From the NCBI GenBank assembly GCA_963720265.1, contig CAVRET010000002.1, forward strand, positions 456,704 to 520,703: a stretch of DNA of 64,000 bases. Reading direction: 5' to 3'. The notes below the pieces were generated by a model. That model saw only the letters and a program-made list of their open reading frames with translations, made no database searches and was not told the DNA's origin. The stretch comes from an uncultured bacterium. GTDB taxonomy: Bacteria; Patescibacteriota; Saccharimonadia; UBA4664. The position numbers and the translations under genes are program-made. Numbering within the stretch: position 1 is the stretch's first letter; every line of letters starts with the position of its first letter. This document shows, one piece after another, positions 25,260 through 36,350 of this stretch.

Positions 25260-25730
25260 CTACAGGCAGCCCTGGCTAACCCATTGGTTCCAATCATTCT
25301 GGCACCAATTCGAACTATAGCAACACCACTTGCCGTTGCTCCAATAGCCCATTTGGCTGTAGTTGTACCACTTGCCGTTGTACATCATGCCGCCATTGTT
25401 GCCGTAGTTGTTACCACTGTTCGCGTAGTAAATGCTACCGCCACCGTAGTTATTGTTGCCGTAGTTGCTACCACCGCCATTGCTGTAGTAAATGCTACCG
25501 CCACCGTAGTTATTGTTGTTGTAGTTGCCACCTTGGTTGCCATAGCTATTGCCATAGCGGTTGCTACTATTGTAGTTGCTGTACAACGCCGGCTTCTGGT
25601 TGTTGCAGTTGCAATTGTTGCCGCGGTTCATGTCGCCCGAATTGCCAGCCAGAGCGCTTGCTCCGCCGAGCGCCACGATCCCTGCTGCAACGGCCAAGCC
25701 GCCACCATACCTAATTAATAATGTTTTCAC
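25260..25730 (-). CDS. Secreted Gly/Asn/Tyr-rich low-complexity repeat protein with a Cys/Trp-rich C-terminus
   Basis: Signal peptide 'MKTLLIRYGGGLAVAAGIVALGGASALA'. Internal tandem repeat NYGGGSIYYxNxG(x)NYGNN, with a matching ~60-bp DNA repeat at about 25430-25530. The plus-strand ORF 25212..25718 is its antisense. Confidence 0.5.
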   Translation of the reverse strand: MKTLLIRYGGGLAVAAGIVALGGASALAGNSGDMNRGNNCNCNNQKPALYSNYNSSNRYGNSYGNQGGNYNNNNYGGGSIYYSNGGGSNYGNNNYGGGSIYYANSGNNYGNNGGMMYNGKWYNYSQMGYWSNGKWCCYSSNWCQNDWNQWVSQGCL

Positions 25731-26037: not shown

Positions 26038-26115
26038 GGCGGGAGTAGCTCAGTTGGTTAGAGCGACGGGTTGTGGTCCCGTAGGTCGTGGGTTCGAGCC
26101 CCATCTCTCGCCCCA
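26038..26115 (+). tRNA. tRNA-His (anticodon GTG) with genomically encoded G-1 and CCA
   Basis: G(-1)-GCGGGAG-TA-GCTC-AGTTGGTTA-GAGC-G-ACGGG-TTGTGGT-CCCGT-AGGTC-GTGGG-TTCGAGC-CCCAT-CTCTCGC-C-CCA. The extra 5' G pairs with C73. Confidence 0.9.
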
Positions 26116-27687
26116 AGCATTCATTTTCTTCGCGTCTGCGATTGCAGAAAACGCACTGTTAAGCTCAAAAACCAACGTTGAGCCTTCCAGTTGGGTGTTC
26201 GAAAGTACGAACTGGATGAGCCGCCTCTTTGTGCTGACAGGAGTTCTCTCGTTCAGGAAAATCTCGCTGGCTCGGCTAGCGACTTCTAAGACCTTGGACG
26301 CGGATACCACAAAGCGCTCGTTGCCCTGGCTGTGGTCTTTTATTTGCTCTAGCACATCAGCTTGGCGCTGCGCCTTTTCGCCAATCAGCTCTTCGAACAA
26401 CTCAGGCTTAATCTTGAATTTTGAGCGGTCTCGAAACATATCTTTAATCTCTTCATCCAGGCGCTTGTATTCTTTCTGCAGCGAGTCCACTTGGCGCTTG
26501 TAGTAATCTTGCTCGCCGTTAAACTCTCTCTCCAGGTCTTCGACCAGCTTTGGCAGCATGTCTCCTGGTATTCTGAACGACTCCAGTATTGCTACTATCT
26601 GGGCGTTGATTACCTTCTCGTTCACCCACTTCGCCCCGTGTTTACCCCCGTACTCTGTGCACTTTAGGTAGTAGTTGCCACCGTTCTTCGGCCCGTCGGT
26701 CGATACAGTGTAGCCGCATGTTCCGCACCTGAGCATATCTTTGAACAGGTATTCTTTTCCCACCAACTTGGTTCTCTGCTTTGAGCGCTTCGCATCTACT
26801 GCTTTCACCTTTTGCCACATCCACGGGTCAATCAGCGGCTCGTATTTGTGAGGGTATTGTTTGCCCTCGTAAACCATCGTGCCAGAGTAAAACGGGTTCA
26901 TCAGGAAATGCTGGACCTGGGTTTTCGGAATCGGCTTCTTCTTAATACTGGAGACCATGCCCTTTTTTCGCAGCTCTTTGGTGATTGCACCATACGACAA
27001 CCCTGCGGCCCGCATCTCGAAAGCCTCTCTTACGAACTGCCTCTTCTCAGGGTCTGCCTCAATATCTTTGATTGGGTCTCCCTTGGTAGTGTAGCCAACG
27101 ATAATGTTCCGGTAGCCAATTGGCGCTTTCCCTGGCCACTCCTGGTCGGCCAGCTTTTGCTCAAATTTGCGGCGTACATTGTCTCTTATTGCGGAACTAT
27201 AATAACTGGCCAGTGCTACGCCAATGTCTAAGCGGAATAGGTCGGCTGCTGGCGAATCTTTGTGTACAAACAAATTGTCCGCTGGAAAATGAAGCTCAAT
27301 TTTCCCCGCCCGCATCAACTTTGTCATGATGCTCTTTTCTTCACTTGAGCTATCGCGAGTGTAGCGGTCAATTTTGTCGAAAGTGACTATGACTAGGCCT
27401 TCCGCCTGCTTGAGCGGCTGAAGCACCAGCTCGCTGAAGGTTTTCCTGGCCTTGCCGTAATATGCCGACTCATCAAATTCCGCGTACGCGTAACGTTCCG
27501 GTCTTTTCTCCACATATTCGACCAGCCGTTTGCGCTGTGCTGGCAGCGCCGGCCTTTGGCTGGCATCAGAGACCCGTGCCACAGCTAAGATAAAACTGTC
27601 GCCGGATTCTGCGAGACGTTCCACCTTCTCTGCTTTCTCGGGCATGAAGCTGTCGCCTTCAAACATCGCCATTGCCTGTGTTTTCAT
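26050..27687 (-). CDS. Large serine recombinase (integrase)
   Basis: 545 aa. N-terminal resolvase catalytic domain '...ILAVARVSDASQRPALPAQ' (catalytic Ser), a recombinase domain, a zinc ribbon 'CGTCGY...C', and a coiled coil. The C-terminal 22 codons overlap the tRNA-His 3' end. Confidence 0.9.
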   Translation of the reverse strand: MKTQAMAMFEGDSFMPEKAEKVERLAESGDSFILAVARVSDASQRPALPAQRKRLVEYVEKRPERYAYAEFDESAYYGKARKTFSELVLQPLKQAEGLVIVTFDKIDRYTRDSSSEEKSIMTKLMRAGKIELHFPADNLFVHKDSPAADLFRLDIGVALASYYSSAIRDNVRRKFEQKLADQEWPGKAPIGYRNIIVGYTTKGDPIKDIEADPEKRQFVREAFEMRAAGLSYGAITKELRKKGMVSSIKKKPIPKTQVQHFLMNPFYSGTMVYEGKQYPHKYEPLIDPWMWQKVKAVDAKRSKQRTKLVGKEYLFKDMLRCGTCGYTVSTDGPKNGGNYYLKCTEYGGKHGAKWVNEKVINAQIVAILESFRIPGDMLPKLVEDLEREFNGEQDYYKRQVDSLQKEYKRLDEEIKDMFRDRSKFKIKPELFEELIGEKAQRQADVLEQIKDHSQGNERFVVSASKVLEVASRASEIFLNERTPVSTKRRLIQFVLSNTQLEGSTLVFELNSAFSAIADAKKMNAWGERWGSNPRPTGPQPVALTN

Positions 27688-27896
27688 TTGTTGCCTCCTT
27701 TATTCTTTTCAATGTCCGCAGCCTTCAGGCTTGCGTACTTTTCATCCAGCTCGTTTTGCCTATCTTGCTCAATCAGCAATTTCAGATAGCCAATCAACCC
27801 GTCTTGTTGCTGCGGCCCGTCAGGTCGCAACGCTTGTTTTGCTAGTTTTTCAAATCGCTTTTTTCTGCGGCTCATTTTGCCTCCGTTCGCACCCAA
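27684..27896 (-). CDS. Small basic/acidic helical protein upstream of and overlapping the integrase (possible recombination directionality factor)
   Basis: 70 aa. 4-nt overlap with the integrase start. No motif recognised. Confidence 0.35.
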   Translation of the reverse strand: MGANGGKMSRRKKRFEKLAKQALRPDGPQQQDGLIGYLKLLIEQDRQNELDEKYASLKAADIEKNKGGNK

Positions 27897-28136
27897 AAGG
27901 GGCGACTCCGGTTGACCCAGCTAGGCTCAAGAAGAGCTGTTACCGGCGGAGCCGCCCCTAAGGAGCGGTAAAGCCACTAAAAAACTTCTTGGGCAAAATC
28001 TAGCTTGGGTCAACGAATTAATTATAATCCGGTGAATCATAGATATCTAATAGACTTATCCACTTAGAAGAGGGAATCTAATTGGATATCCAATAGTATT
28101 TAGGTATCCATATAGACATCTATATAGCTATATAGA

Positions 28137-28529
28137 TTAGGGTGGTTTATTCGAGTCTTTTTCTAGCTCTTCAAAGGCTTTATCCATAAGTTCGTCCAGG
28201 TTCTCGATATCCTCATCGGTAGGGAGAATATCAGGAGTTTTCAGGGCCTCAACAGCTTCGAGTACAAGGCTCTCAATTTTCTTCCTCAGCACTGATTCTT
28301 TTGTCAGCTCAATCGGCTTGATGTAACCATTACCGCGCTTAAACGCCGGCATCTGGACCCACAAGTCCCCGTAGCGAGGCGAGCGGCGAACACTAATGCT
28401 GTTAATGAACAGCTCAATGTCCGGAAAGTTGACTTTAACGAGGTAATATTCAGCCTTGTCATCGCGGTAGTACACCTCTGCCGTAGCAAGGTCAAGGCTG
28501 AGGAAAATTTTAGTTGGCTGGTCGCTCAT
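28137..28529 (-). CDS. SpoVG-like protein (phage or plasmid-borne)
   Basis: 'VKVNFPDIELFINSISVRRSPRYGDLWVQMPAFKRGNGYIKPIEL' resembles the SpoVG core (hhhDIRVh..G.LFVAMPSKR..G...DIAHPI). Start uncertain. Confidence 0.4.
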   Translation of the reverse strand: MSDQPTKIFLSLDLATAEVYYRDDKAEYYLVKVNFPDIELFINSISVRRSPRYGDLWVQMPAFKRGNGYIKPIELTKESVLRKKIESLVLEAVEALKTPDILPTDEDIENLDELMDKAFEELEKDSNKPP

Positions 28530-28815
28530 TCGTACCATCCTCATGCTCATTTTTAACTTCAGAATGTTGCCCGCCGTACAGCCACGATTTCAACCTACGA
28601 GTTGCGTCGTGATACAGCCTGGGGTTCAATTCGATGCCGTCATCCCAATACAGTTCCACTACAGAGCGCAGTTCCGGCGAGTCCCAAAAAACAAAACCAA
28701 CCCGCCGCTGATTACTCCGGTCCAGGCCAATCGCTTTGAAGCCTTTGGCAGCCAGGACCGCAGCTAGCGGCAGGTCGGATGTAGTGAATTGTTTTTCAGC
28801 CAGTGCCATTCTCAT
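28510..28815 (-). CDS. DUF5659-like phage-associated protein
   Basis: 'FTTSDLPLAAVLAAKGFKAIGLDRSNQRRVGFVFWDSPEL' matches my recollection of DUF5659. Confidence 0.4.
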   Translation of the reverse strand: MRMALAEKQFTTSDLPLAAVLAAKGFKAIGLDRSNQRRVGFVFWDSPELRSVVELYWDDGIELNPRLYHDATRRLKSWLYGGQHSEVKNEHEDGTNERPAN

Positions 28816-28878
28816 CCTGCGTGATTACAGGTGTGAGCTTAGCCTAGTAATTTTCCGTGGTATAACCCCTAAATGAGT

Positions 28879-29571
28879 TCACTTACGTTTTGACTGGCGT
28901 TCAAATGTGCGAATAAGGCCAGGAATTTGTGTATAGTCGTAGATTCCTCCAAGCTCTTCCTCAATGCGGGCAGCAATCTCGCGGTTTGTAAGGTTGGGGT
29001 CTTCTTGCTTCAATTCTGCTGCTCGCCGTCCGTCTTCCAACCTTTCATCATCTAACGCTCTTATTTGGTGTACTCTTTTATGCTTCAGCGATGCCAGGTG
29101 CCAGCTCACGTCCTTCCACGCCGCTTTCCACTCACGGCTGTTAATGTTGGCATCAACATGCACTATTAGATAATCAAGTGGTTTACCCATATGGTCGCTT
29201 GAGCGGACGCCCACATTAGTTGTGGGCCGCAGTTTACTGCGGTCACCGTAGGTAATGAAATCCGTAATGAAAGAGTCCCAGAAAGGAGAACAGCGATGTT
29301 TGGCAACAAGCTTGGCAGTTGCGTTCTCAAGTAGAGTTGATGGCATACGGGCTAGTATTTTGTCGCCGTCCCAGTCTTTGCCAGCAGCAACGTATGCTTC
29401 TCTGTTGTGCGATAAAAAATAATCGTGGTCGAGGTCAACTCTTTCCTTATACCCGCCTGTCGGATAGCCGAGCCTTCTGCGCACTCGGTCCGCATCTTTG
29501 CGAAACTCTATGTTTTGCAAAAACGCCTCATACGCTTTCTCAGCGGAACTTTTTACTTTGGTGTCAGCCAT
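28879..29571 (-). CDS. hypothetical protein
   Basis: Start chosen at 'MADTKVK', which has a GGAG Shine-Dalgarno 6 nt upstream. 230 aa. No family recognised. Confidence 0.5.
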   Translation of the reverse strand: MADTKVKSSAEKAYEAFLQNIEFRKDADRVRRRLGYPTGGYKERVDLDHDYFLSHNREAYVAAGKDWDGDKILARMPSTLLENATAKLVAKHRCSPFWDSFITDFITYGDRSKLRPTTNVGVRSSDHMGKPLDYLIVHVDANINSREWKAAWKDVSWHLASLKHKRVHQIRALDDERLEDGRRAAELKQEDPNLTNREIAARIEEELGGIYDYTQIPGLIRTFERQSKRK

Positions 29572-29684
29572 TTTCATCTCCATCCTCATCTGGGCATATT
29601 CTCTCACGCCTGGTTGCCAACAGGGGTATCCGGAAGAATTCCTAGTCAATTCACGGCTTGCGGTTTACCTGTCAAAATAAAAAT

Positions 29685-30134
29685 ATGGGGGAGAAGTCAA
29701 CAAAAGTCGGCCGGCCAGCCGCGATAACAACGGCTTGTGTCCAAAAACTGGAACAGGCGTTTCGTGAGGGTTCGGACACGGCAACGGCCTGCCATCTATC
29801 TGGAATTTCGCGGTCTACATACTACCAACGTCTTGCCGACGACTCCGAGTTTTCGGACAAAATGCGGCTTGCGCAAGAGTGGCCAACTGCACTCGCAAGA
29901 AAAACGGTTGTCAGCGAAATTAACAAAGGCAACTTTACTGCCGCGCGCTGGTGGCTTGAGCGCAAGGCATCTGCCGAATTTGGCCAAACTCCGGCTACAG
30001 GTAAGCATCCCGAACCGGCTATCAACCTAACTCAGGCTCAGTGGGATGCAATGCAGCAAGCTTCAGAAGCTGCAATTCGGTTACTGCAGGGTGAGCCGGA
30101 CACAGGCTCGGGGGCTGGCAATCTCGTTGACTGA
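29685..30134 (+). CDS. HTH DNA-binding protein resembling a phage terminase small subunit
   Basis: 'VGRPAAITTACVQKLEQAFREGSDTATACHLSGISRSTYYQRLADDSEFSDKMRLAQE' is a typical TerS-like N-terminal HTH. Confidence 0.5.
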   Translation: MGEKSTKVGRPAAITTACVQKLEQAFREGSDTATACHLSGISRSTYYQRLADDSEFSDKMRLAQEWPTALARKTVVSEINKGNFTAARWWLERKASAEFGQTPATGKHPEPAINLTQAQWDAMQQASEAAIRLLQGEPDTGSGAGNLVD

Positions 30135-30336
30135 GGCAAAAATGACGCGCATACTTTTTGCGTTGACGTTAGACAGTAGTTTTTAGTTTCCGCGCGTTTT
30201 CGCGTGGTTGCGATTTGAGCCTGAATAGGCCGCAATCACCGAAAAATAGTAGGCTCAAACCTGCTGTCTGGCGTCAACAACCTAGGTGGTTGTGGCCTTT
30301 TTAATTGGCCCTCCCCGTTAATAAAGGAGGCGCGTC

Positions 30337-30723
30337 ATGGACATTCAGCCAGCCACAAAACCTAAACAAGTAGAGATGCCGCCCGACCAGGCTACGGGCA
30401 AAAAGGTGGCCAAAGGGGTGGCCGGAGGCGCTGCTGGGATTATTATGGGGGTCATCATCGGTATAGTAATGTTCATTGCCGGCCTCTTGCTCACGTTCAC
30501 CATCATTGGGGCAATTATTGGAATCCCGCTCATGATTGCAGCTTTTGTAACGCCGTTTGCGTTTGGCGGAGCGATGGCCAAACACGCAGCCACTGCAATT
30601 GAACTGACATGCCCGTACTGCGACAACAAGGTGTCATGGACAAAACGGAAAAAGGCTGGCGTTTGTAGGGTCTGCCAAAAGCGACTGATAATGAAGGGTA
30701 ACAAGCTTCAGGTTGTTGAGTGA
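30337..30723 (+). CDS. Membrane protein with a C-terminal zinc ribbon
   Basis: Strong Shine-Dalgarno (aaggagg). Two TM helices, then 'CPYCDNK...CRVCQK'. Confidence 0.65.
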   Translation: MDIQPATKPKQVEMPPDQATGKKVAKGVAGGAAGIIMGVIIGIVMFIAGLLLTFTIIGAIIGIPLMIAAFVTPFAFGGAMAKHAATAIELTCPYCDNKVSWTKRKKAGVCRVCQKRLIMKGNKLQVVE

Positions 30724-30870
30724 TGCCGGAGGAGAGTAAGAAATCGGCTGAGCGGTTTGTCTGGCACGAGGGGGATTACGAGCTTGTGCCCACGGAAGAA
30801 TTGGGACGTAGCAGGCAAAACAGACTCAACACGCAAAACCCAAAGGCGCGCGGTGAGAGAGAAAGCCCCG

Positions 30871-31965
30871 CTAGGCCTCCACTTTCCCCTCCAGGCCCTG
30901 GAAGCGCATCGCCCGCCTGAACCCTAATTTTTCCGCCTCTGCGACTGTTGAACAATATTTTTCGCCCAGCCTAGGCTTAATTTTTACTCGGTCATATTGC
31001 TGGTCAAACGGAAGGTGATAAATCTTCTCGCCAGTTGCCGGAGCAATATTGCACTTAATGCAGGCATACGGCTGGGGCAGCTTCTCCTGCTCCTTCATTT
31101 CAATCCCAAGTTCGTTGCCGAACCGCCGCGCCAGGTCCGAGACATTGGTTGTTGTGTAGAAGAGAGCACGCACATTCTCGGACCTGTGCTCATCGCGGTA
31201 TTTAAAAACGGTGCCGAAAAACTGAAAAATGTGCTTTTCGTGGAGTAATTTGAACCTTGACCAGTTCTTACATTGAACTACGACAGTCTCTTGGCCCTTC
31301 TTGGCTATCAGGTCACGCCCCAAGTCTTGGCGGCCCTTAATTATGCCCTCATAGCTCACGTCGTACCCCTGCTGCTCGTACACCGACCCAACGTAACGCT
31401 CGTACATTATGCCGATGTGCCATTTTGACTTACGCTTCTTCCAATAGTTATCCAATGCCACCTGGTTGCGCTCACTTGGGGAGAGCGTCTCGTACTGCTC
31501 TTTTGAGAGAAATAATGCGGCATTGTCTTTGGCCTCATCAACCTCAGGCGGCTCATCCGCTTCAACCAAATAACCCTCATCCGCACCAGTGCCATCAAAG
31601 TCCTCTCGTAGCTCGGCCAGCTCTGGCATGAGGGTTTCGTAGTCCTCAACCAGGTAGCGGTACATTCTGCGCTCGGCATCAGCTTCGCGCCGTTGCTTGG
31701 CTATCACCTGCAGTATGTCGCTGGCTTTTGGCGCAGGGTGGGCCTTGTATTTCAGCAGGTCAACGAGCTGCTTGTCCTGCAGTGCCAGATACTCTTCATA
31801 CGCCTTTGCCAGTGTCGGATACCCCTTGGCGTACTCATTCGCCATCTGAGCAATCTCGCGCCTCTGCTGGGCCAGTCTGGGGTAAGTGGCATCAATAAAC
31901 TTTTGTGCCTTTTCGTAGTCGGCCATGAGGCGGCGGAGTTGGTTTAAGAGCTGCTGTGGGTCCAC
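30871..31965 (-). CDS. Coiled-coil protein with an Mrr-type restriction-endonuclease catalytic domain (Mrr_cat) and a C-terminal Zn-finger
   Basis: 'WHIGIMYERYVGSVYEQQGYDVSYEGIIKGRQDLGRDLIAKKGQETVVVQCKNW' is the PD-(D/E)xK Mrr_cat pattern (D...D/E..QCK). C-terminal 'CIKCN...'. GTG start overlapping the stop of the upstream gene by 1 nt (TAGTG). Confidence 0.65.
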   Translation of the reverse strand: MDPQQLLNQLRRLMADYEKAQKFIDATYPRLAQQRREIAQMANEYAKGYPTLAKAYEEYLALQDKQLVDLLKYKAHPAPKASDILQVIAKQRREADAERRMYRYLVEDYETLMPELAELREDFDGTGADEGYLVEADEPPEVDEAKDNAALFLSKEQYETLSPSERNQVALDNYWKKRKSKWHIGIMYERYVGSVYEQQGYDVSYEGIIKGRQDLGRDLIAKKGQETVVVQCKNWSRFKLLHEKHIFQFFGTVFKYRDEHRSENVRALFYTTTNVSDLARRFGNELGIEMKEQEKLPQPYACIKCNIAPATGEKIYHLPFDQQYDRVKIKPRLGEKYCSTVAEAEKLGFRRAMRFQGLEGKVEA

Positions 31966-32489
31966 TAGCGATAGGCCTCATCAAGCTCCTGGAAAAACTG
32001 TCCAAGATAAAGTTCGTCCAGTCTTGGCGAGCCTGCTGGGCCAGTAAAGCCAAAGTCGCAAACGGGGTTTGTGCACCTGTAGCTGTAAATTCCAGCAGCA
32101 CCATTTTGGTATGACCTTTCAACTGTACCCTCCTGGCACTTCGGGCAGTGAATAACTTTCGACTCCCCGAAGTAGCTTTGCCGCTCAACAAACTTACCCA
32201 TTCCATAGCTTGAGAGATAGCGTAACTTGCGCTCAAGTTTCTCAACCGAAGTTGTGCTGAGCTTGTTCTCGCTTACTAGCTGTTGGATCTCAGCAAGTGT
32301 CGCCATGCGGTCAACCGGCTCCGGATTGGGAAGCTCCAGTGGTCGCGCCCCAGCCACACTAGGCTGGCTCCGACGCTGAGCCTTGTACCGGTTGGTTCTA
32401 TGCTCATCATAGCGCTCCCACAGCCAGCCTAGCCCGATTAGTAAGCCAATAATGATAATTACAGTCATGGTTCTGATGTTAAGATACAT
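31965..32489 (-). CDS. Membrane-anchored protein with a C-terminal double zinc ribbon
   Basis: N-terminal TM 'MTVIIIIGLLIGLGWLW'. 'HCPKCQEG...YRCTNPVCDFGF'. Translationally coupled to the downstream nuclease gene. Confidence 0.6.
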   Translation of the reverse strand: MYLNIRTMTVIIIIGLLIGLGWLWERYDEHRTNRYKAQRRSQPSVAGARPLELPNPEPVDRMATLAEIQQLVSENKLSTTSVEKLERKLRYLSSYGMGKFVERQSYFGESKVIHCPKCQEGTVERSYQNGAAGIYSYRCTNPVCDFGFTGPAGSPRLDELYLGQFFQELDEAYR

Positions 32490-32519
32490 CAGTCCACTTG
32501 CTTTGCTAAGGCTCCAATA

Positions 32520-33266
32520 TTACCAGGTGATTACGCTCACCCCCATCTCCTTTAGTTTCTTTTCTTCTTCGGCACTGAGGCCCAGCTCTCGGTTCTCCAT
32601 GTCAAAGCCGTAAGTAATGCCATAAATATTGTGCTTGAAAAAGAATGATTGCCGGCCATTGAGTTGCCTGGGCAAGCCTGAAAATTCGCATTTGTTCTCA
32701 GGGGTCCCAGGCACCACTACCCAGAAACCCTTAAAGTCCCGTACACCCATAATGATTTGGCGTGCTTCATCAAAGCGCGGCTGCAATACATATTCTGCCC
32801 CACGGTCCAGGCACATGAACTCATATGCAATTTTGTAAAGTGCCCTGGCGAAGTTCTTCGCATAATTGGTGGTCATTTTGTCGCCTCGAAGGTGAAGCCT
32901 AAAGTTTACCGACCCGTCAGGTTGCCTAGGCCCTTCTTCGTAATGTTTCGGCGTTGTTTTCGCCATCTCCATGTAAAGACCGCTGCGGTCCGGCTTAACC
33001 TGCATATTTAGGTTGGTCATTCGAACCTCAGGCATCTTACCTTCTTTGTTGGGAACCATAAAATAGGTCCGAAGGTAGGCAATAATCTTGTCTTTCACCA
33101 AAATGGAATCCAGGCCAGCCAGAACCGTATTGTTGCAGTTGTCGCAAACCGTACCCCGTGGCAGCACGTATTTGGTGTTACCAAGGCTCTCTGGCACAAT
33201 ATGCTCTTCCGATGTGAAGCTTCCGTGTTTGGTGAGGCAAAAAACGCACTGCATACCCCCGACCAT
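32520..33266 (-). CDS. HNH endonuclease domain protein with an uncharacterised C-terminal domain
   Basis: 'CVFCLTKHGSFTSEEHIVPESLGN...TVCDNCNN' is a classic HNH (CxxC...H...N...CxxC). Start set at the internal Met; the upstream ORF extension is low-complexity. Confidence 0.7.
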   Translation of the reverse strand: MVGGMQCVFCLTKHGSFTSEEHIVPESLGNTKYVLPRGTVCDNCNNTVLAGLDSILVKDKIIAYLRTYFMVPNKEGKMPEVRMTNLNMQVKPDRSGLYMEMAKTTPKHYEEGPRQPDGSVNFRLHLRGDKMTTNYAKNFARALYKIAYEFMCLDRGAEYVLQPRFDEARQIIMGVRDFKGFWVVVPGTPENKCEFSGLPRQLNGRQSFFFKHNIYGITYGFDMENRELGLSAEEEKKLKEMGVSVITW

Positions 33267-33326
33267 AATGTAATTCGTGGCAAATCTGCAATAAGATAGG
33301 GCTACGTTTGAAAGTTTTAGGGAGAA

Positions 33327-34187
33327 ATGCCGAGAATTAATCCGAAAAAAAGCGATAAACAGGCTGAGTTGGAGAAAGAACTCGATGCGCTGATTGAAAG
33401 CGGGGCTTCCAAGATTGATGGGTATAAGCTGCCCGCTGGAAAGCAAAATCGAAAAACACTTTTTACTCTCGCCACATATGCTGCGGTCAGTGACAGGGCC
33501 GAGGGGATTCTTCTTATGGCGCAAAATTACAAGCCCGACCCAGCTTTTATTATTTTGCGGTCAGCTCAAGAGGGCTATCTTAACCTATGCTACGTTCTAC
33601 AAACCGATAATGATGCGAGACTGCTGGCAATGTTCCATTCTTTGGCAGAGCAGGACGTTCGCCGAGTGAGGTTGCTAGATACGTACCTAAAAACACTAAC
33701 GACCAAATCGGGCGTGCCTGAAGGTCTAAGCAGTGATGCTCACGACGCAATTGCTCGCCTTGAAAAACAGCGCGACCAGGCCCAGCAAGAATTAGCGAAG
33801 CTCGAAGACTCTGAGTTTGCGGCCAAGAGCCTCCCTGACCTTGTCGAGCGCTTACGGCGCTATGATGCAGGGAGTAAAGCCGAGGGCAATGACACTCACC
33901 TGGAGCTGGATTATCGCATGATTTATTTTTTTCTATCTCAGCACACTCACCTTGGGCTTTCGGCTCTAGCGAATAATCTTGGTGAAACCGGCGAGACTGT
34001 TGATTTGAACCCAAAAGACCCTGTCTCCGATTGCGAAATTGTGCTCCACTCCGCATATGCAATTTTAGGCGACACTTTAATGCTGACACTGGCACAAATT
34101 GGCGCTTCAACTGATGGCGTGCTTGAGCAGATGAAGGAAGTTGCCAAGAGACTAAAGCCTGATACAAAAAGTAGCGCTAGCTCATGA
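33327..34187 (+). CDS. Hypothetical protein, first gene of a translationally coupled pair (lower-GC block)
   Basis: 286 aa. The stop overlaps the next start (ATGA). Helical, with no motif confidently recognised. Confidence 0.6.
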   Translation: MPRINPKKSDKQAELEKELDALIESGASKIDGYKLPAGKQNRKTLFTLATYAAVSDRAEGILLMAQNYKPDPAFIILRSAQEGYLNLCYVLQTDNDARLLAMFHSLAEQDVRRVRLLDTYLKTLTTKSGVPEGLSSDAHDAIARLEKQRDQAQQELAKLEDSEFAAKSLPDLVERLRRYDAGSKAEGNDTHLELDYRMIYFFLSQHTHLGLSALANNLGETGETVDLNPKDPVSDCEIVLHSAYAILGDTLMLTLAQIGASTDGVLEQMKEVAKRLKPDTKSSASS

Positions 34188-35152
34188 AGCGTTCAGCCTC
34201 GCAGAAGGTCCAGCTCATTACTAAGTCGCGTGAGGCAACTCTGGCTGCCGTTCAGCTATTCAATAATCCTCTAGCCAGTTTCAAAACAGAGTCCTTCATC
34301 GTTCTCAGTATGATTGCCTGGACTTACATGCTGCACGCGTACTATCGCGCAAAGGGCGTCGAGAACCGCTACTTTGAGCAAGGCCCAGTGCGAAGACGCT
34401 TTGTTCGCAACTCAGACAATAGTTACCGATATTGGGACTTAACAGAGTGCATAAAATCGGAACACTGCCCTCTTGACAGCAACACATCCAACAACCTGCT
34501 GTTCCTTATCGGACTACGCAACCAAATAGAGCACAACAGGCCCGAGGGTTTGGACTCTTACTTGTCTGCTCGCTACCAGGCGTGTATGTTGAACTTCAAT
34601 TTTTACATTAAGAAGCTGCACGGTGAAAAATATGGTCTAGATGACAACCTTACGCTCAGTCTGCAATTCGGCGAGCTTACCTACAACCAAGCGAATGTCA
34701 TAAAAAATAAGGAGAAGCTTATACCTGCCGGCATCAATTCATACATTGCCAGCTTTGACAGCAAATTAAGTGAAAACGAACGCAATAATGAGCGCTATGC
34801 GTACAGGTTGCTGTTTACCAAAACTTCAGCCAAACGCGAAGGTCAAGCTGACAGGGTTGTCGAGTTCCTTGACCCGAATTCCGAGCTAGCTAAGAACATT
34901 GATAAAGAGTATTGGGTAAAAGAGGAAAGAGAAAAGCCCAAATTTCGCCCAACTGACGTGGTCAGGGAAGTCCAAAAAGCAGGCTTCAGAGCGTTCAACA
35001 TCACAAAACACACAGATATGTGGAAGGCCCATGACGCAAAGAGTCTGGCAAAGGGGTACGGCGTTGAAGTGGCAAAGACTTGGTATTGGTACCAAAATTG
35101 GGTGGACTTGGTAATTCAGGAGTTATCCGAGGCGGGCAGAACTCAAATTTGA
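34184..35152 (+). CDS. DUF3644-like protein (a family I recall from abortive-infection and defence-island contexts)
   Basis: 'REATLAAVQLFNNPLASFKTESFIVLSMIAWTYMLHAYYRAKGVE...RYWDLTECI' matches my recollection of the DUF3644 N-terminal signature. 322 aa. Confidence 0.5.
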   Translation: MKRSASQKVQLITKSREATLAAVQLFNNPLASFKTESFIVLSMIAWTYMLHAYYRAKGVENRYFEQGPVRRRFVRNSDNSYRYWDLTECIKSEHCPLDSNTSNNLLFLIGLRNQIEHNRPEGLDSYLSARYQACMLNFNFYIKKLHGEKYGLDDNLTLSLQFGELTYNQANVIKNKEKLIPAGINSYIASFDSKLSENERNNERYAYRLLFTKTSAKREGQADRVVEFLDPNSELAKNIDKEYWVKEEREKPKFRPTDVVREVQKAGFRAFNITKHTDMWKAHDAKSLAKGYGVEVAKTWYWYQNWVDLVIQELSEAGRTQI

Positions 35153-35340
35153 CTATGACAGCACAGTTTTAAACCGAATATCGGCTCCAGGAAGCCGTTA
35201 TTTTGTTGTTTACATCTTTAACCCGTATAGGGCTTCGAACACCAGAATAAGTTCTTTTCGAGCCGAAGGCGAAAGCACACTCTTGAGAGGGGTTATTTCA
35301 AAGTTTTTAACAACAGATAGGGAAAGATTACAATAACGTC

Positions 35341-36132
35341 ATGAAATTACCCATCATGGCCAATGTAACCTTTAAAACTCCTCACGGCTTATTGCAGCTT
35401 CAAGGCGCACCGGATATAGGCCACTTTAACCAGCGATTGAAGGCCTATTTTGAAGATGAATTCAAGAATCCAGACGCGCTGTCCTCTTACTCAAATTTTC
35501 AAAAGATTTTAAACAAAAAGGCAAAAGAGGTATCTCATTTAAGGATTTACGATTTTGAAGCTGAACAAAGGGTAGGCGAGTTAGTGGTTGTATCTGCAAT
35601 AGCAGCTACGTTAAACCACATTCACGGCATGGCACTTATACCAGGATGGCAGAGGTCAGGGCAGCAAGTGATCATGGAGCAAGAGTTCGGCAAAAAGAGC
35701 TGGGATGGATTTGTGTATGAGACCCCTACGGATGGTACCGATAAGGCTTTTCCAAATTTCGTAGAGGTAAAATCAACTATGGTAAACCCAAGTGAAGACG
35801 TAATGAGCCCGAATGAATTGATGAACAGCAGACTCGAACAGTACAGAAAACACTTTCAATCTTCTGACACAATCTGTGCAATATTCATCATGCCCTATAC
35901 TGCCCCTGGAGAGCGGCTTCGATTCGACCTTAAAGACGCTACGGAAAAACTTAACAATGTGGTTGCGGATGGCGCTATGGGTAGTATCTGTCTGCTCAGC
36001 TTTCCGACCAATGAGAGCGGACAGACGGTAATGACCATTCATTGCTATCTAGTAAACAAAAACCCAAAGCTTGGTAAGAATGGAAAAATTGATAACGTCA
36101 GTTTAGGAAAACTTGAGTTAGCGGACTTTTAA
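35341..36132 (+). CDS. hypothetical protein (AT-rich gene)
   Basis: 263 aa. Clean ORF. No family recognised. Confidence 0.55.
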   Translation: MKLPIMANVTFKTPHGLLQLQGAPDIGHFNQRLKAYFEDEFKNPDALSSYSNFQKILNKKAKEVSHLRIYDFEAEQRVGELVVVSAIAATLNHIHGMALIPGWQRSGQQVIMEQEFGKKSWDGFVYETPTDGTDKAFPNFVEVKSTMVNPSEDVMSPNELMNSRLEQYRKHFQSSDTICAIFIMPYTAPGERLRFDLKDATEKLNNVVADGAMGSICLLSFPTNESGQTVMTIHCYLVNKNPKLGKNGKIDNVSLGKLELADF

Positions 36133-36168
36133 GATTATAGCGATGGTGCGTTAGGAGAGGCGATTACT

Positions 36169-36245
36169 GACCGAAACCTAATATCATTCACCATCCGTGC
36201 AATCTCTCCGTTCGCTGTTCGAAACTTGAACCATAGCTCGCCCCA
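36169..36245 (+). repeat. Repeat A: att-like imperfect direct repeat ending in the tRNA-His 3' core
   Basis: gaccgaaacctaatatcattcaccatc...aatctc...gttcgaaacttgaaccatagctcgcccca. Shares 'ctcgcccca' with tRNA-His 26107-26115. Confidence 0.7.
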
Positions 36246-36350
36246 AAGAACTTATGCTTAAAAAGGTGTTAACTCGCCTTTTTTGTTGCCAAAAGCAAGG
36301 ACGCCCTGGTTGGGCGTCCCGCTAATGCAGGAGCCCAACCAGGGCGTAGT

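Follow-up and report, generated by a model that had tools for sequence, protein, structure and literature searches.

A predicted membrane-tethered Mrr-type nuclease, split over two coupled genes, in a tRNA-His island of a Saccharimonadia genome

The DNA analysed here is a 64,000-nt stretch (the window) of contig CAVRET010000002.1 from an uncultured bacterium of the Patescibacteriota (Saccharimonadia; UBA4664), and the genes under study lie on its minus strand at 30871-33266. A preliminary description, made from the letters of the window, read them as a coupled operon of three components, an HNH endonuclease, a membrane zinc-ribbon protein and an Mrr-type nuclease, and as a candidate defence system. 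Comparison with homologous loci points to a functional unit of two genes, anchor and nuclease, rather than three. Judged by its sequence, the pair belongs, in diverged and split form, to a large unnamed family of Mrr-type nucleases that are tethered to the membrane and borne by mobile elements. Correcting the three-gene model has a practical side, as that model would misdirect cloning.

An anchor gene coupled to a nuclease gene

The three open reading frames (ORFs) lie where the preliminary description had placed them, in one direction on the minus strand (Table I), and are regarded as real genes because all three have homologues. Its spacing is likewise correct: 30 nt separate the HNH stop codon from the start of the zinc-ribbon gene, and the stop codon of the latter overlaps the GTG start of the nuclease gene by 1 nt (TAGTG; junction CGCTAGTGG). 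The sequence GAGG stands 10 nt upstream of this GTG.

The zinc-ribbon protein opens with a hydrophobic segment, MTVIIIIGLLIGLGWLW, followed by a basic stretch, in agreement with the transmembrane anchoring proposed for it. A linker, a C4 ribbon and a C-terminal tail follow in that order. The protein had been called a double zinc ribbon; it contains exactly four Cys residues, which make a single C4 ribbon of the topoisomerase type.

To place this pair among its relatives, 80 genome loci encoding homologues of the nuclease were fetched and their neighbourhoods analysed to a reach of 6 kb. Clustering of all ORFs revealed a partner protein of 86-168 residues directly upstream of the nuclease in 31 of these loci. 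The partners begin with a hydrophobic helix and share the motif CPxC...G.YG.F.GC..YP.C.(F/Y)T, and those of other loci match the Pfam family Zn_ribbon_Top1 (PF01396) above its cut-off. In 24 of the 31 loci the partner stop codon falls between -6 and +3 nt from the start of the longest nuclease ORF, while in the remaining seven the longest ORF already begins upstream of the partner stop codon. The two closest nuclease relatives on long contigs have the same order of anchor and nuclease, one of them with the identical 1-nt overlap. The translational coupling noted in the window is therefore conserved in other loci.

The window anchor is recognized by a hidden Markov model (HMM) of the 31 partners (E=3e-4) and, more clearly, by a profile of the 13 long-form partners (hhalign, 94.8%, E=4.9e-8), the latter match covering the ribbon and the tail (F..D...AY). 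On this basis the window anchor, which also stands in the same coupled position, is assigned as a diverged member of the Zn_ribbon_Top1 partner family. A word-index homologue search with the window anchor had found only the anchor itself, and a tblastn search with the protein against the 80 nuclease loci gave no matches; as ORF clustering, the HMM and hhalign later found the partners, the tblastn result is ascribed to limited sensitivity. Tail-bearing partners go together with nucleases whose N-terminal ~35 residues resemble those of the window protein (11/14 versus 4/17; Fisher p=0.004, kinship ignored), which hints that the anchor tail touches the N-terminal helix of the nuclease.

Variants were noted at three loci. 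In a fused nuclease at L064 (5323-7005) the transmembrane helix is followed by a SWIM zinc finger, and the upstream transmembrane Cys-rich proteins at L029 (266-562) and L080 (5435-5776) do not match the Top1-ribbon profile.

Split and fused forms of the nuclease family

The nuclease family is large, with more than 4,300 matches and thousands of full-length homologues at 50-59% identity, of which more than 100 were aligned. At 50% identity it resolves into 845 clusters (E<=1e-30). Named homologues come mostly from Patescibacteria, and the 80 loci span Patescibacteria, Clostridia, Bacteroidota, Cyanobacteria, Proteobacteria, Planctomycetota and one archaeal metagenome-assembled genome. The conserved part is always C-terminal in the cluster representatives, preceded by an N-terminal extension of ~40 to 350 residues, and homologue lengths range from 277 to 728 residues. 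The window nuclease holds the full-length arrangement of an N-domain with the GFPxLAxAY motif, the Mrr_cat core and a C-domain with the pattern KCN...YHxPxDxxYD...FRRA.

In 37 others of the 80 loci no separate partner is encoded. The nuclease of these loci is longer and bears one to three hydrophobic, transmembrane-like segments of its own at the N-terminus, followed by basic residues. The same fused form is seen in every one of the 49 complete homologues from viral contigs of IMG/VR and in 125 of the 149 best cluster representatives (of 845 clusters). Most other members of the family therefore unite the transmembrane helix or helices, a helical stalk and the nuclease in a single polypeptide. 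The window nuclease has no hydrophobic segment, and its anchor would be supplied in trans by the upstream gene. When fused and partner-borne segments are counted together, the share with a predicted membrane segment is 84% among cluster representatives and 85% among genome loci. This pattern of fusion and fission is the main evidence that anchor and nuclease act together and that membrane tethering is a trait of the family. The anchor module itself seems to be exchangeable across the family.

Domains of the nuclease

The Mrr-type PD-(D/E)xK domain recognized in the preliminary description is well supported, with a Pfam Mrr_cat (PF04471) match over residues 188-296 (E=8e-11; 42.5 bits against a 21-bit cut-off). 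All 120 sequences compared keep the four catalytic residues listed in Table I, which form the Mrr-type D...QxK motif. Pfam detected neither Mrr_N nor another modification-reading domain in the nuclease, and sequence searches of solved structures returned nothing meaningful.

Two other features of the nuclease had been described in terms that need revision. The N-terminal region, read as a coiled coil, is better described as a conserved domain of helices (residues 3-47, 50-72 and 81-122) that has motifs of its own (GFPxLAxAY, KxxPA and YYE..P.L), which are kept in distant fused homologues of other phyla. At the C-terminus, where a zinc finger had been proposed, only C305 is invariant among 120 homologues, C338 being ~90% conserved. 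The C-terminal region weakly matches the NCBIfam 'sunset' model NF051437 (E=6e-5; 23 bits, below the 27-bit cut-off), matches phrog_21287 (E=5.5e-6), and recurs, on rhizobial plasmids, at the C-terminal end of proteins that bear the annotation thermonuclease family. This sunset-like domain (YxCIKCN...KIYHLPFDQQYD...AEAEKxGFRRA) is probably a nucleic-acid-binding or accessory module; a literature search for 'sunset domain' produced no relevant paper.

The HNH gene as a neighbour

The call of an HNH endonuclease is sound. The protein matches Pfam HNH_5 over residues 7-57 (E=3e-7, above cut-off) and contains C7, C10, H22, C41, C44 and N45; no solved relative was found for its C-terminal domain, and its one PADLOC match, to DpdF, is marginal (E=3e-3, 14 bits).

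The place of this gene in a unit with the other two is a different matter. A three-component system with two nuclease effectors is suggested by the shared direction of the genes, by the short gap between the HNH and anchor genes, in which there is no terminator-like site, and by the adjacency of the same three genes on a 10.9-kb Logan contig. The proteins on that contig are identical to those of the window, so it represents the same element and lends the trio no independent support. None of the 80 nuclease loci has an HNH homologue within 6 kb (tblastn), nor was an HNH neighbour of the nuclease found in 50 viral contigs, and beside the two closest relatives on long contigs there are only anchor and nuclease. 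The HNH family is also small, with 53 homologues from other phyla and a taxonomic spread unlike that of the far more numerous nucleases. Its members pair with other genes: the neighbours of HNH homologues include a ParB-methyltransferase, Ltp, a serine recombinase and DUF4238; a KAP NTPase whose stop codon overlaps the HNH start; and SIR2 and GIY-YIG genes. Neither Mrr nor zinc-ribbon neighbours were seen at the HNH homologues examined. Conserved co-occurrence is thus absent for the HNH gene and present for the zinc-ribbon and Mrr genes, and the neighbourhood data largely refute the three-gene model, to which we give the smallest probability of the explanations considered here. The HNH gene appears to be an unrelated neighbour, not a conserved partner of the pair. 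It may be co-transcribed with the pair in the window; a scan for promoters and terminators gave counts near the shuffled expectation and is uninformative on this point.

Association with mobile elements

The nuclease family is carried as cargo by prophages, usually beside the integrase, and by integrative elements. In 27 of the 80 genome loci an integrase is encoded at a distance of no more than 6 kb. In Clostridia the nuclease gene stands between cI/cro-like or ImmA-like regulators, on its upstream side, and a tyrosine integrase, which starts 13-72 nt downstream in five of eight such loci. A similar placement is seen on the viral contigs, where 27 of 49 copies are less than 4.2 kb from a contig end and 12 of them are followed within 42-140 nt by a tyrosine integrase on the same strand. 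Three Patescibacteria loci (L007, L034 and L040) have a serine recombinase and an orf101-like gene in common with the window island, and L040 additionally a small-terminase-like gene. On Hymenobacter plasmids, a full-length nuclease homologue adjoins a DUF4238 gene.

Scans of the 150 nearest neighbour genes with Pfam and PADLOC brought up no conserved third component. Defence genes among the nearest neighbours are DUF4238, SoFic, PDC-S04 and PD-Lambda-2_B, and, in the window, PDC-S19. Since tblastn searches of deposited phage genomes with two members of the family gave at most one weak match, the link to phages rests on the prophage-like metagenomic contigs of IMG/VR. As a separate observation, DUF4238 (Rst_DUF4238 family) recurs both near members of the nuclease family and near an HNH homologue (L036, 10163-11092; L087, 8198-9067; L081, 7234-7304).

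Comparison with known systems

Neither the nuclease nor the anchor has any PADLOC match, in a model set that includes Septu, Gabija, Zorya, Kiwa, PD-T4/T7/Lambda and PDC. The view that this is an uncharacterized module without a named counterpart is upheld, and its likening to membrane-tethered effectors was apt.

SNIPE (Saxton et al., bioRxiv) is built from a transmembrane helix, DUF4041 and a GIY-YIG nuclease. It cuts phage DNA as this is injected, becomes toxic when its transmembrane helix is removed, and varies in an N-terminal 'adapter' region (10.1101/2025.11.03.685801). The present family resembles SNIPE in its elongated helical region, in its broad phyletic spread, and in having a C-terminal DNA nuclease as the most conserved part and a highly variable N-terminal region. 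It differs in nuclease fold, which is PD-(D/E)xK (Mrr_cat) rather than GIY-YIG, in the lack of DUF4041 in the nuclease (Pfam scan at E<=0.1) and in the extra sunset-like domain at the C-terminus. Moreover, the window nuclease has no transmembrane domain of its own, although its fused homologues do, and a separate Top1-type zinc-ribbon anchor is encoded both here and in the 31 loci described above.

Shield ShdA is a membrane-bound nuclease with an RmuC domain, and a version lacking the anchor could not be cloned, which its authors read as toxicity (PMC10270631). As in ShdA, a nuclease of the restriction-endonuclease fold is accompanied by variable accessory genes. That the present one may also be membrane-bound and cytoplasmic is suggested by the hydrophobic N-terminal segment, followed by basic residues, in the anchor and in fused homologues. 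Anchoring may restrain a promiscuous DNase in ShdA, and the same is proposed here. The domains are different, with Mrr_cat and no match to RmuC (Pfam, and PADLOC at E<=0.1, the Shield models of the release being unchecked) and with another helical N-domain. Shield was described in Pseudomonas, whereas the present family occurs mainly in Patescibacteria and Firmicute prophages. Having no RmuC, DUF4041 or GIY-YIG, the pair is a member of neither SNIPE nor Shield.

The catalytic domain family and the D...QxK motif are those of the Escherichia coli type IV enzyme Mrr and of Pfam Mrr_cat proteins generally. In place of the N-terminal winged-helix DNA-binding domain of Mrr, the present family has the helical N-domain, the sunset-like C-domain and the membrane tether. 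The missing DNA-binding domain sets the nuclease of the pair apart from classical Type IV Mrr enzymes. A combination of related parts is known from NERD-domain proteins, in which a nuclease of the PD-(D/E)xK clan occurs with N-terminal transmembrane helices and/or Zn_ribbon_Top1; to our knowledge these proteins are functionally uncharacterized. One locus (L023) has a weak Pfam NERD match (E=1.3e-3, below cut-off). The present family differs from NERD proteins in that Mrr_cat is its best Pfam match and that its ribbon is on a separate, translationally coupled anchor.

Two further candidates were set aside. PdpSau, a membrane-anchored abortive-infection protein of Staphylococcus aureus prophages, was rejected, its paper mentioning neither a nuclease nor Mrr and placing the gene in the lysis module; the Mrr_cat of Rousset 2022 is not relevant, being there only an effector in STAND NTPases.

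Proposed function and alternative explanations

We lean, by a little over an even chance, towards a split membrane-tethered nuclease pair that protects the host, and the element residing in it, from incoming DNA of phages or of other foreign origin. The 174-residue protein would be a single-pass anchor whose C-terminal part, with ribbon and tail, is predicted to be cytoplasmic. Its tail would bind the N-terminal helix of the nuclease and its ribbon would capture DNA, the helical N-domain docking on the anchor. Held at the inner face of the membrane, the nuclease would be kept off the chromosome and would cut entering DNA; alternatively, it may be released or activated once infection perturbs the membrane. 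An abortive-infection mechanism, to which the preliminary description had likened the system, is possible, and direct cleavage of entering DNA at least as likely. At most, by analogy, the pair would work like SNIPE or ShdA.

A more specific version, which we hold tentatively and consider clearly the less probable, is a two-protein nuclease of the injection site. DNA passing through the inner membrane, whether from a phage tail, a conjugation pore or a competence pilus, would be seized by the ribbon, and the anchor tail would recruit or unlock the nuclease, so that self and non-self would be told apart by location. The pair may on this account be among the main direct defences of Patescibacteria.

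Several points count against a defensive pair. The predicted topology is founded on the positive-inside rule and a hydropathy window alone; the similarity of the window anchor to the partner family is confined to its last 60 residues; and the Fisher test linking tail and nuclease N-terminus ignores phylogeny. No domain able to distinguish foreign DNA from that of the host was recognized. The neighbourhoods are heterogeneous, with some copies amid housekeeping genes (uvrA, dnaK), and one close relative is located between uvrA and the dnaK operon. A tblastn search of 50,697 deposited phage genomes with the window nuclease found nothing, and one with a Bacillota homologue gave a single weak, partial match. 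Finally, SNIPE has been tested by experiment, whereas the present family is known here from sequences alone.

The position of the family invites the explanation that the module serves the mobile element itself, as an addiction module or toxin, as a means of degrading host DNA on induction, or as a factor in excision, replication or packaging. The genes lie tight against integrases at prophage ends, within the lysogeny module, and recur in serine-recombinase elements of Patescibacteria (the candidate phyla radiation, CPR) with the orf101-like and small-terminase-like genes of the window island; an untethered nuclease would also be toxic, by analogy with ShdA and SNIPE. Many copies, however, are outside recognizable elements, amid housekeeping genes or on plasmids beside DUF4238, no conserved antitoxin-like partner accompanies them, and nothing ties a membrane anchor to the chemistry of excision. 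The interval between integrase and repressor, moreover, is the classical place of lysogenic-conversion and superinfection-exclusion genes, such as lactococcal sie. We regard a service to the element as unlikely. Slightly less likely again is a solitary, soluble Type IV Mrr-like enzyme, for which the membrane is irrelevant and the small protein either incidental or a DNA-binding specificity subunit. The Mrr_cat domain, the database annotation 'restriction endonuclease' and the absence of a linked methyltransferase among the neighbours, expected of Type IV enzymes, fit such an enzyme, but it would lack Mrr_N or any other modification-reading domain, the frequency of membrane segments in representatives and loci is not explained by chance, and the helical N-domain is conserved across phyla.

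Abundance in Patescibacteria could also mean that the pair processes DNA taken up for nucleotide salvage, downstream of the competence machinery. Restriction enzymes have been suggested as a possible means by which epibionts obtain nucleotides, and the isolate nzgw410, from which locus L038 comes, has restriction endonucleases in a genomic island (PMC12455944). Salvage accords poorly with the presence of the family in Clostridia prophages, on Bacteroidota plasmids and in Cyanobacteria, Proteobacteria and Planctomycetota, with its accessory, island-borne rather than core character, and with the finding that the 150 nearest neighbours include neither com nor pil genes; it strikes us as improbable, nearly to the same degree as the three-gene system.

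Location-based defence, where a promiscuous nuclease is stationed at the membrane and DNA is cut only on entry, has recently been demonstrated for SNIPE and suggested for Shield. If the defensive pair proves real, a third, unrelated nuclease fold would be found on the same architecture, in 845 clusters and many phyla, which would suggest a general strategy that has arisen repeatedly. Were the injection-site version also true, it would be an independent invention of the SNIPE strategy based on PD-(D/E)xK, with sensor/anchor and effector as exchangeable genes. Very few defence systems are known in Patescibacteria, and LdgA and DdgA, two of those described, are reported to be without homology to known proteins (PMC12366544). 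Being especially common in a group with so few known systems, the pair family could fill part of this gap. The natural split between anchor and nuclease also offers an experimental handle, the halves being separable and the variable anchor or N-terminal region open to swapping.

The island and its other genes

The location in a tRNA-His island is confirmed. From the tRNA-His gene (26039-26115) to ~36.25 kb the GC content is 0.44-0.52, compared with ~0.56, and this, together with a serine recombinase and a degenerate repeat of the tRNA 3' end, identifies an integrated element of ~10.1 kb (Table I). The island genes are also found on the 10,894-nt Logan contig ERR11523669_937265, which could be an excised form of the island or an assembly break.

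Table I. Features of the window discussed in the text
Feature	Positions	Strand	Basis or remark
HNH_5 endonuclease, 248 aa	32520-33266	-	Pfam HNH_5
Membrane anchor with zinc ribbon, 174 aa	31965-32489	-	ORF, Cys pattern, hydrophobic segment
Predicted anchor transmembrane helix, ~residues 8-25	32415-32468	-	Hydrophobic segment
Anchor C4 zinc ribbon (C115, C118, C139, C144)	32058-32147	-	Four Cys
Anchor C-terminal tail, FFQELDEAYR	31968-31997	-
Mrr_cat nuclease, 364 aa, GTG start	30871-31965	-	Pfam Mrr_cat
Helical N-domain, residues 1-122	31600-31965	-	Motifs GFPxLAKAY, K74..A78, Y109-E110..P114.L116
Mrr_cat core, residues 181-296	31078-31425	-	Pfam; fold matches restriction-endonuclease-like nucleases
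Catalytic residue E189	31399-31401	-
Catalytic residue D218	31312-31314	-
Catalytic residue Q231	31273-31275	-
Catalytic residue K233	31267-31269	-
Sunset-like C-terminal domain, residues 300-352	30910-31068	-	Conserved pattern given in text
Integrative element, ~10.1 kb, in tRNA-His 3' end	26039-36246
Degenerate 16-nt repeat of tRNA 3' end	26101-26116 and 36231-36246
Large serine recombinase, 545 aa	26050-27687	-	Island gene
Small-terminase-like gene	29658-30134	+	phrog_4102, E=3e-17; Pfam Sf6_terminase weak
Second small membrane protein, 128 aa, C-terminal CxxC...CxxC ribbon	30337-30723	+	phrog_10121, E=3e-9; weak DUF2614, DUF8173
DUF5677 gene	33327-34187	+	Overlaps DUF3644 gene by 4 nt
DUF3644 gene	34184-35152	+	PADLOC candidate PDC-S19 match, E=5e-128
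263-aa ORF, far end of island	35341-36132	+	No match in Pfam, NCBIfam, PHROGs or PADLOC
156-aa ORF, low complexity, Asn/Gly/Tyr-rich, signal-like N-terminus	25260-25730	-	Between tRNA-Gly/Arg and tRNA-Pro

No other structural genes stand beside the small-terminase-like gene in the element, whose content suggests a phage-satellite-like (PICI-like) element with a host that is probably one of the Patescibacteria. Divergent from the HNH gene, the overlapping DUF5677 and DUF3644 (PDC-S19) genes probably form a separate two-gene candidate defence module. We propose that the same small island, of defence type, carries this module and the HNH gene as separate cargo.

A relative of the small-terminase-like gene is present at L040 (1492-1770). 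The gene for the second small membrane protein is convergent with the nuclease gene, and a long ORF runs antisense to the low-complexity ORF among the tRNA genes.

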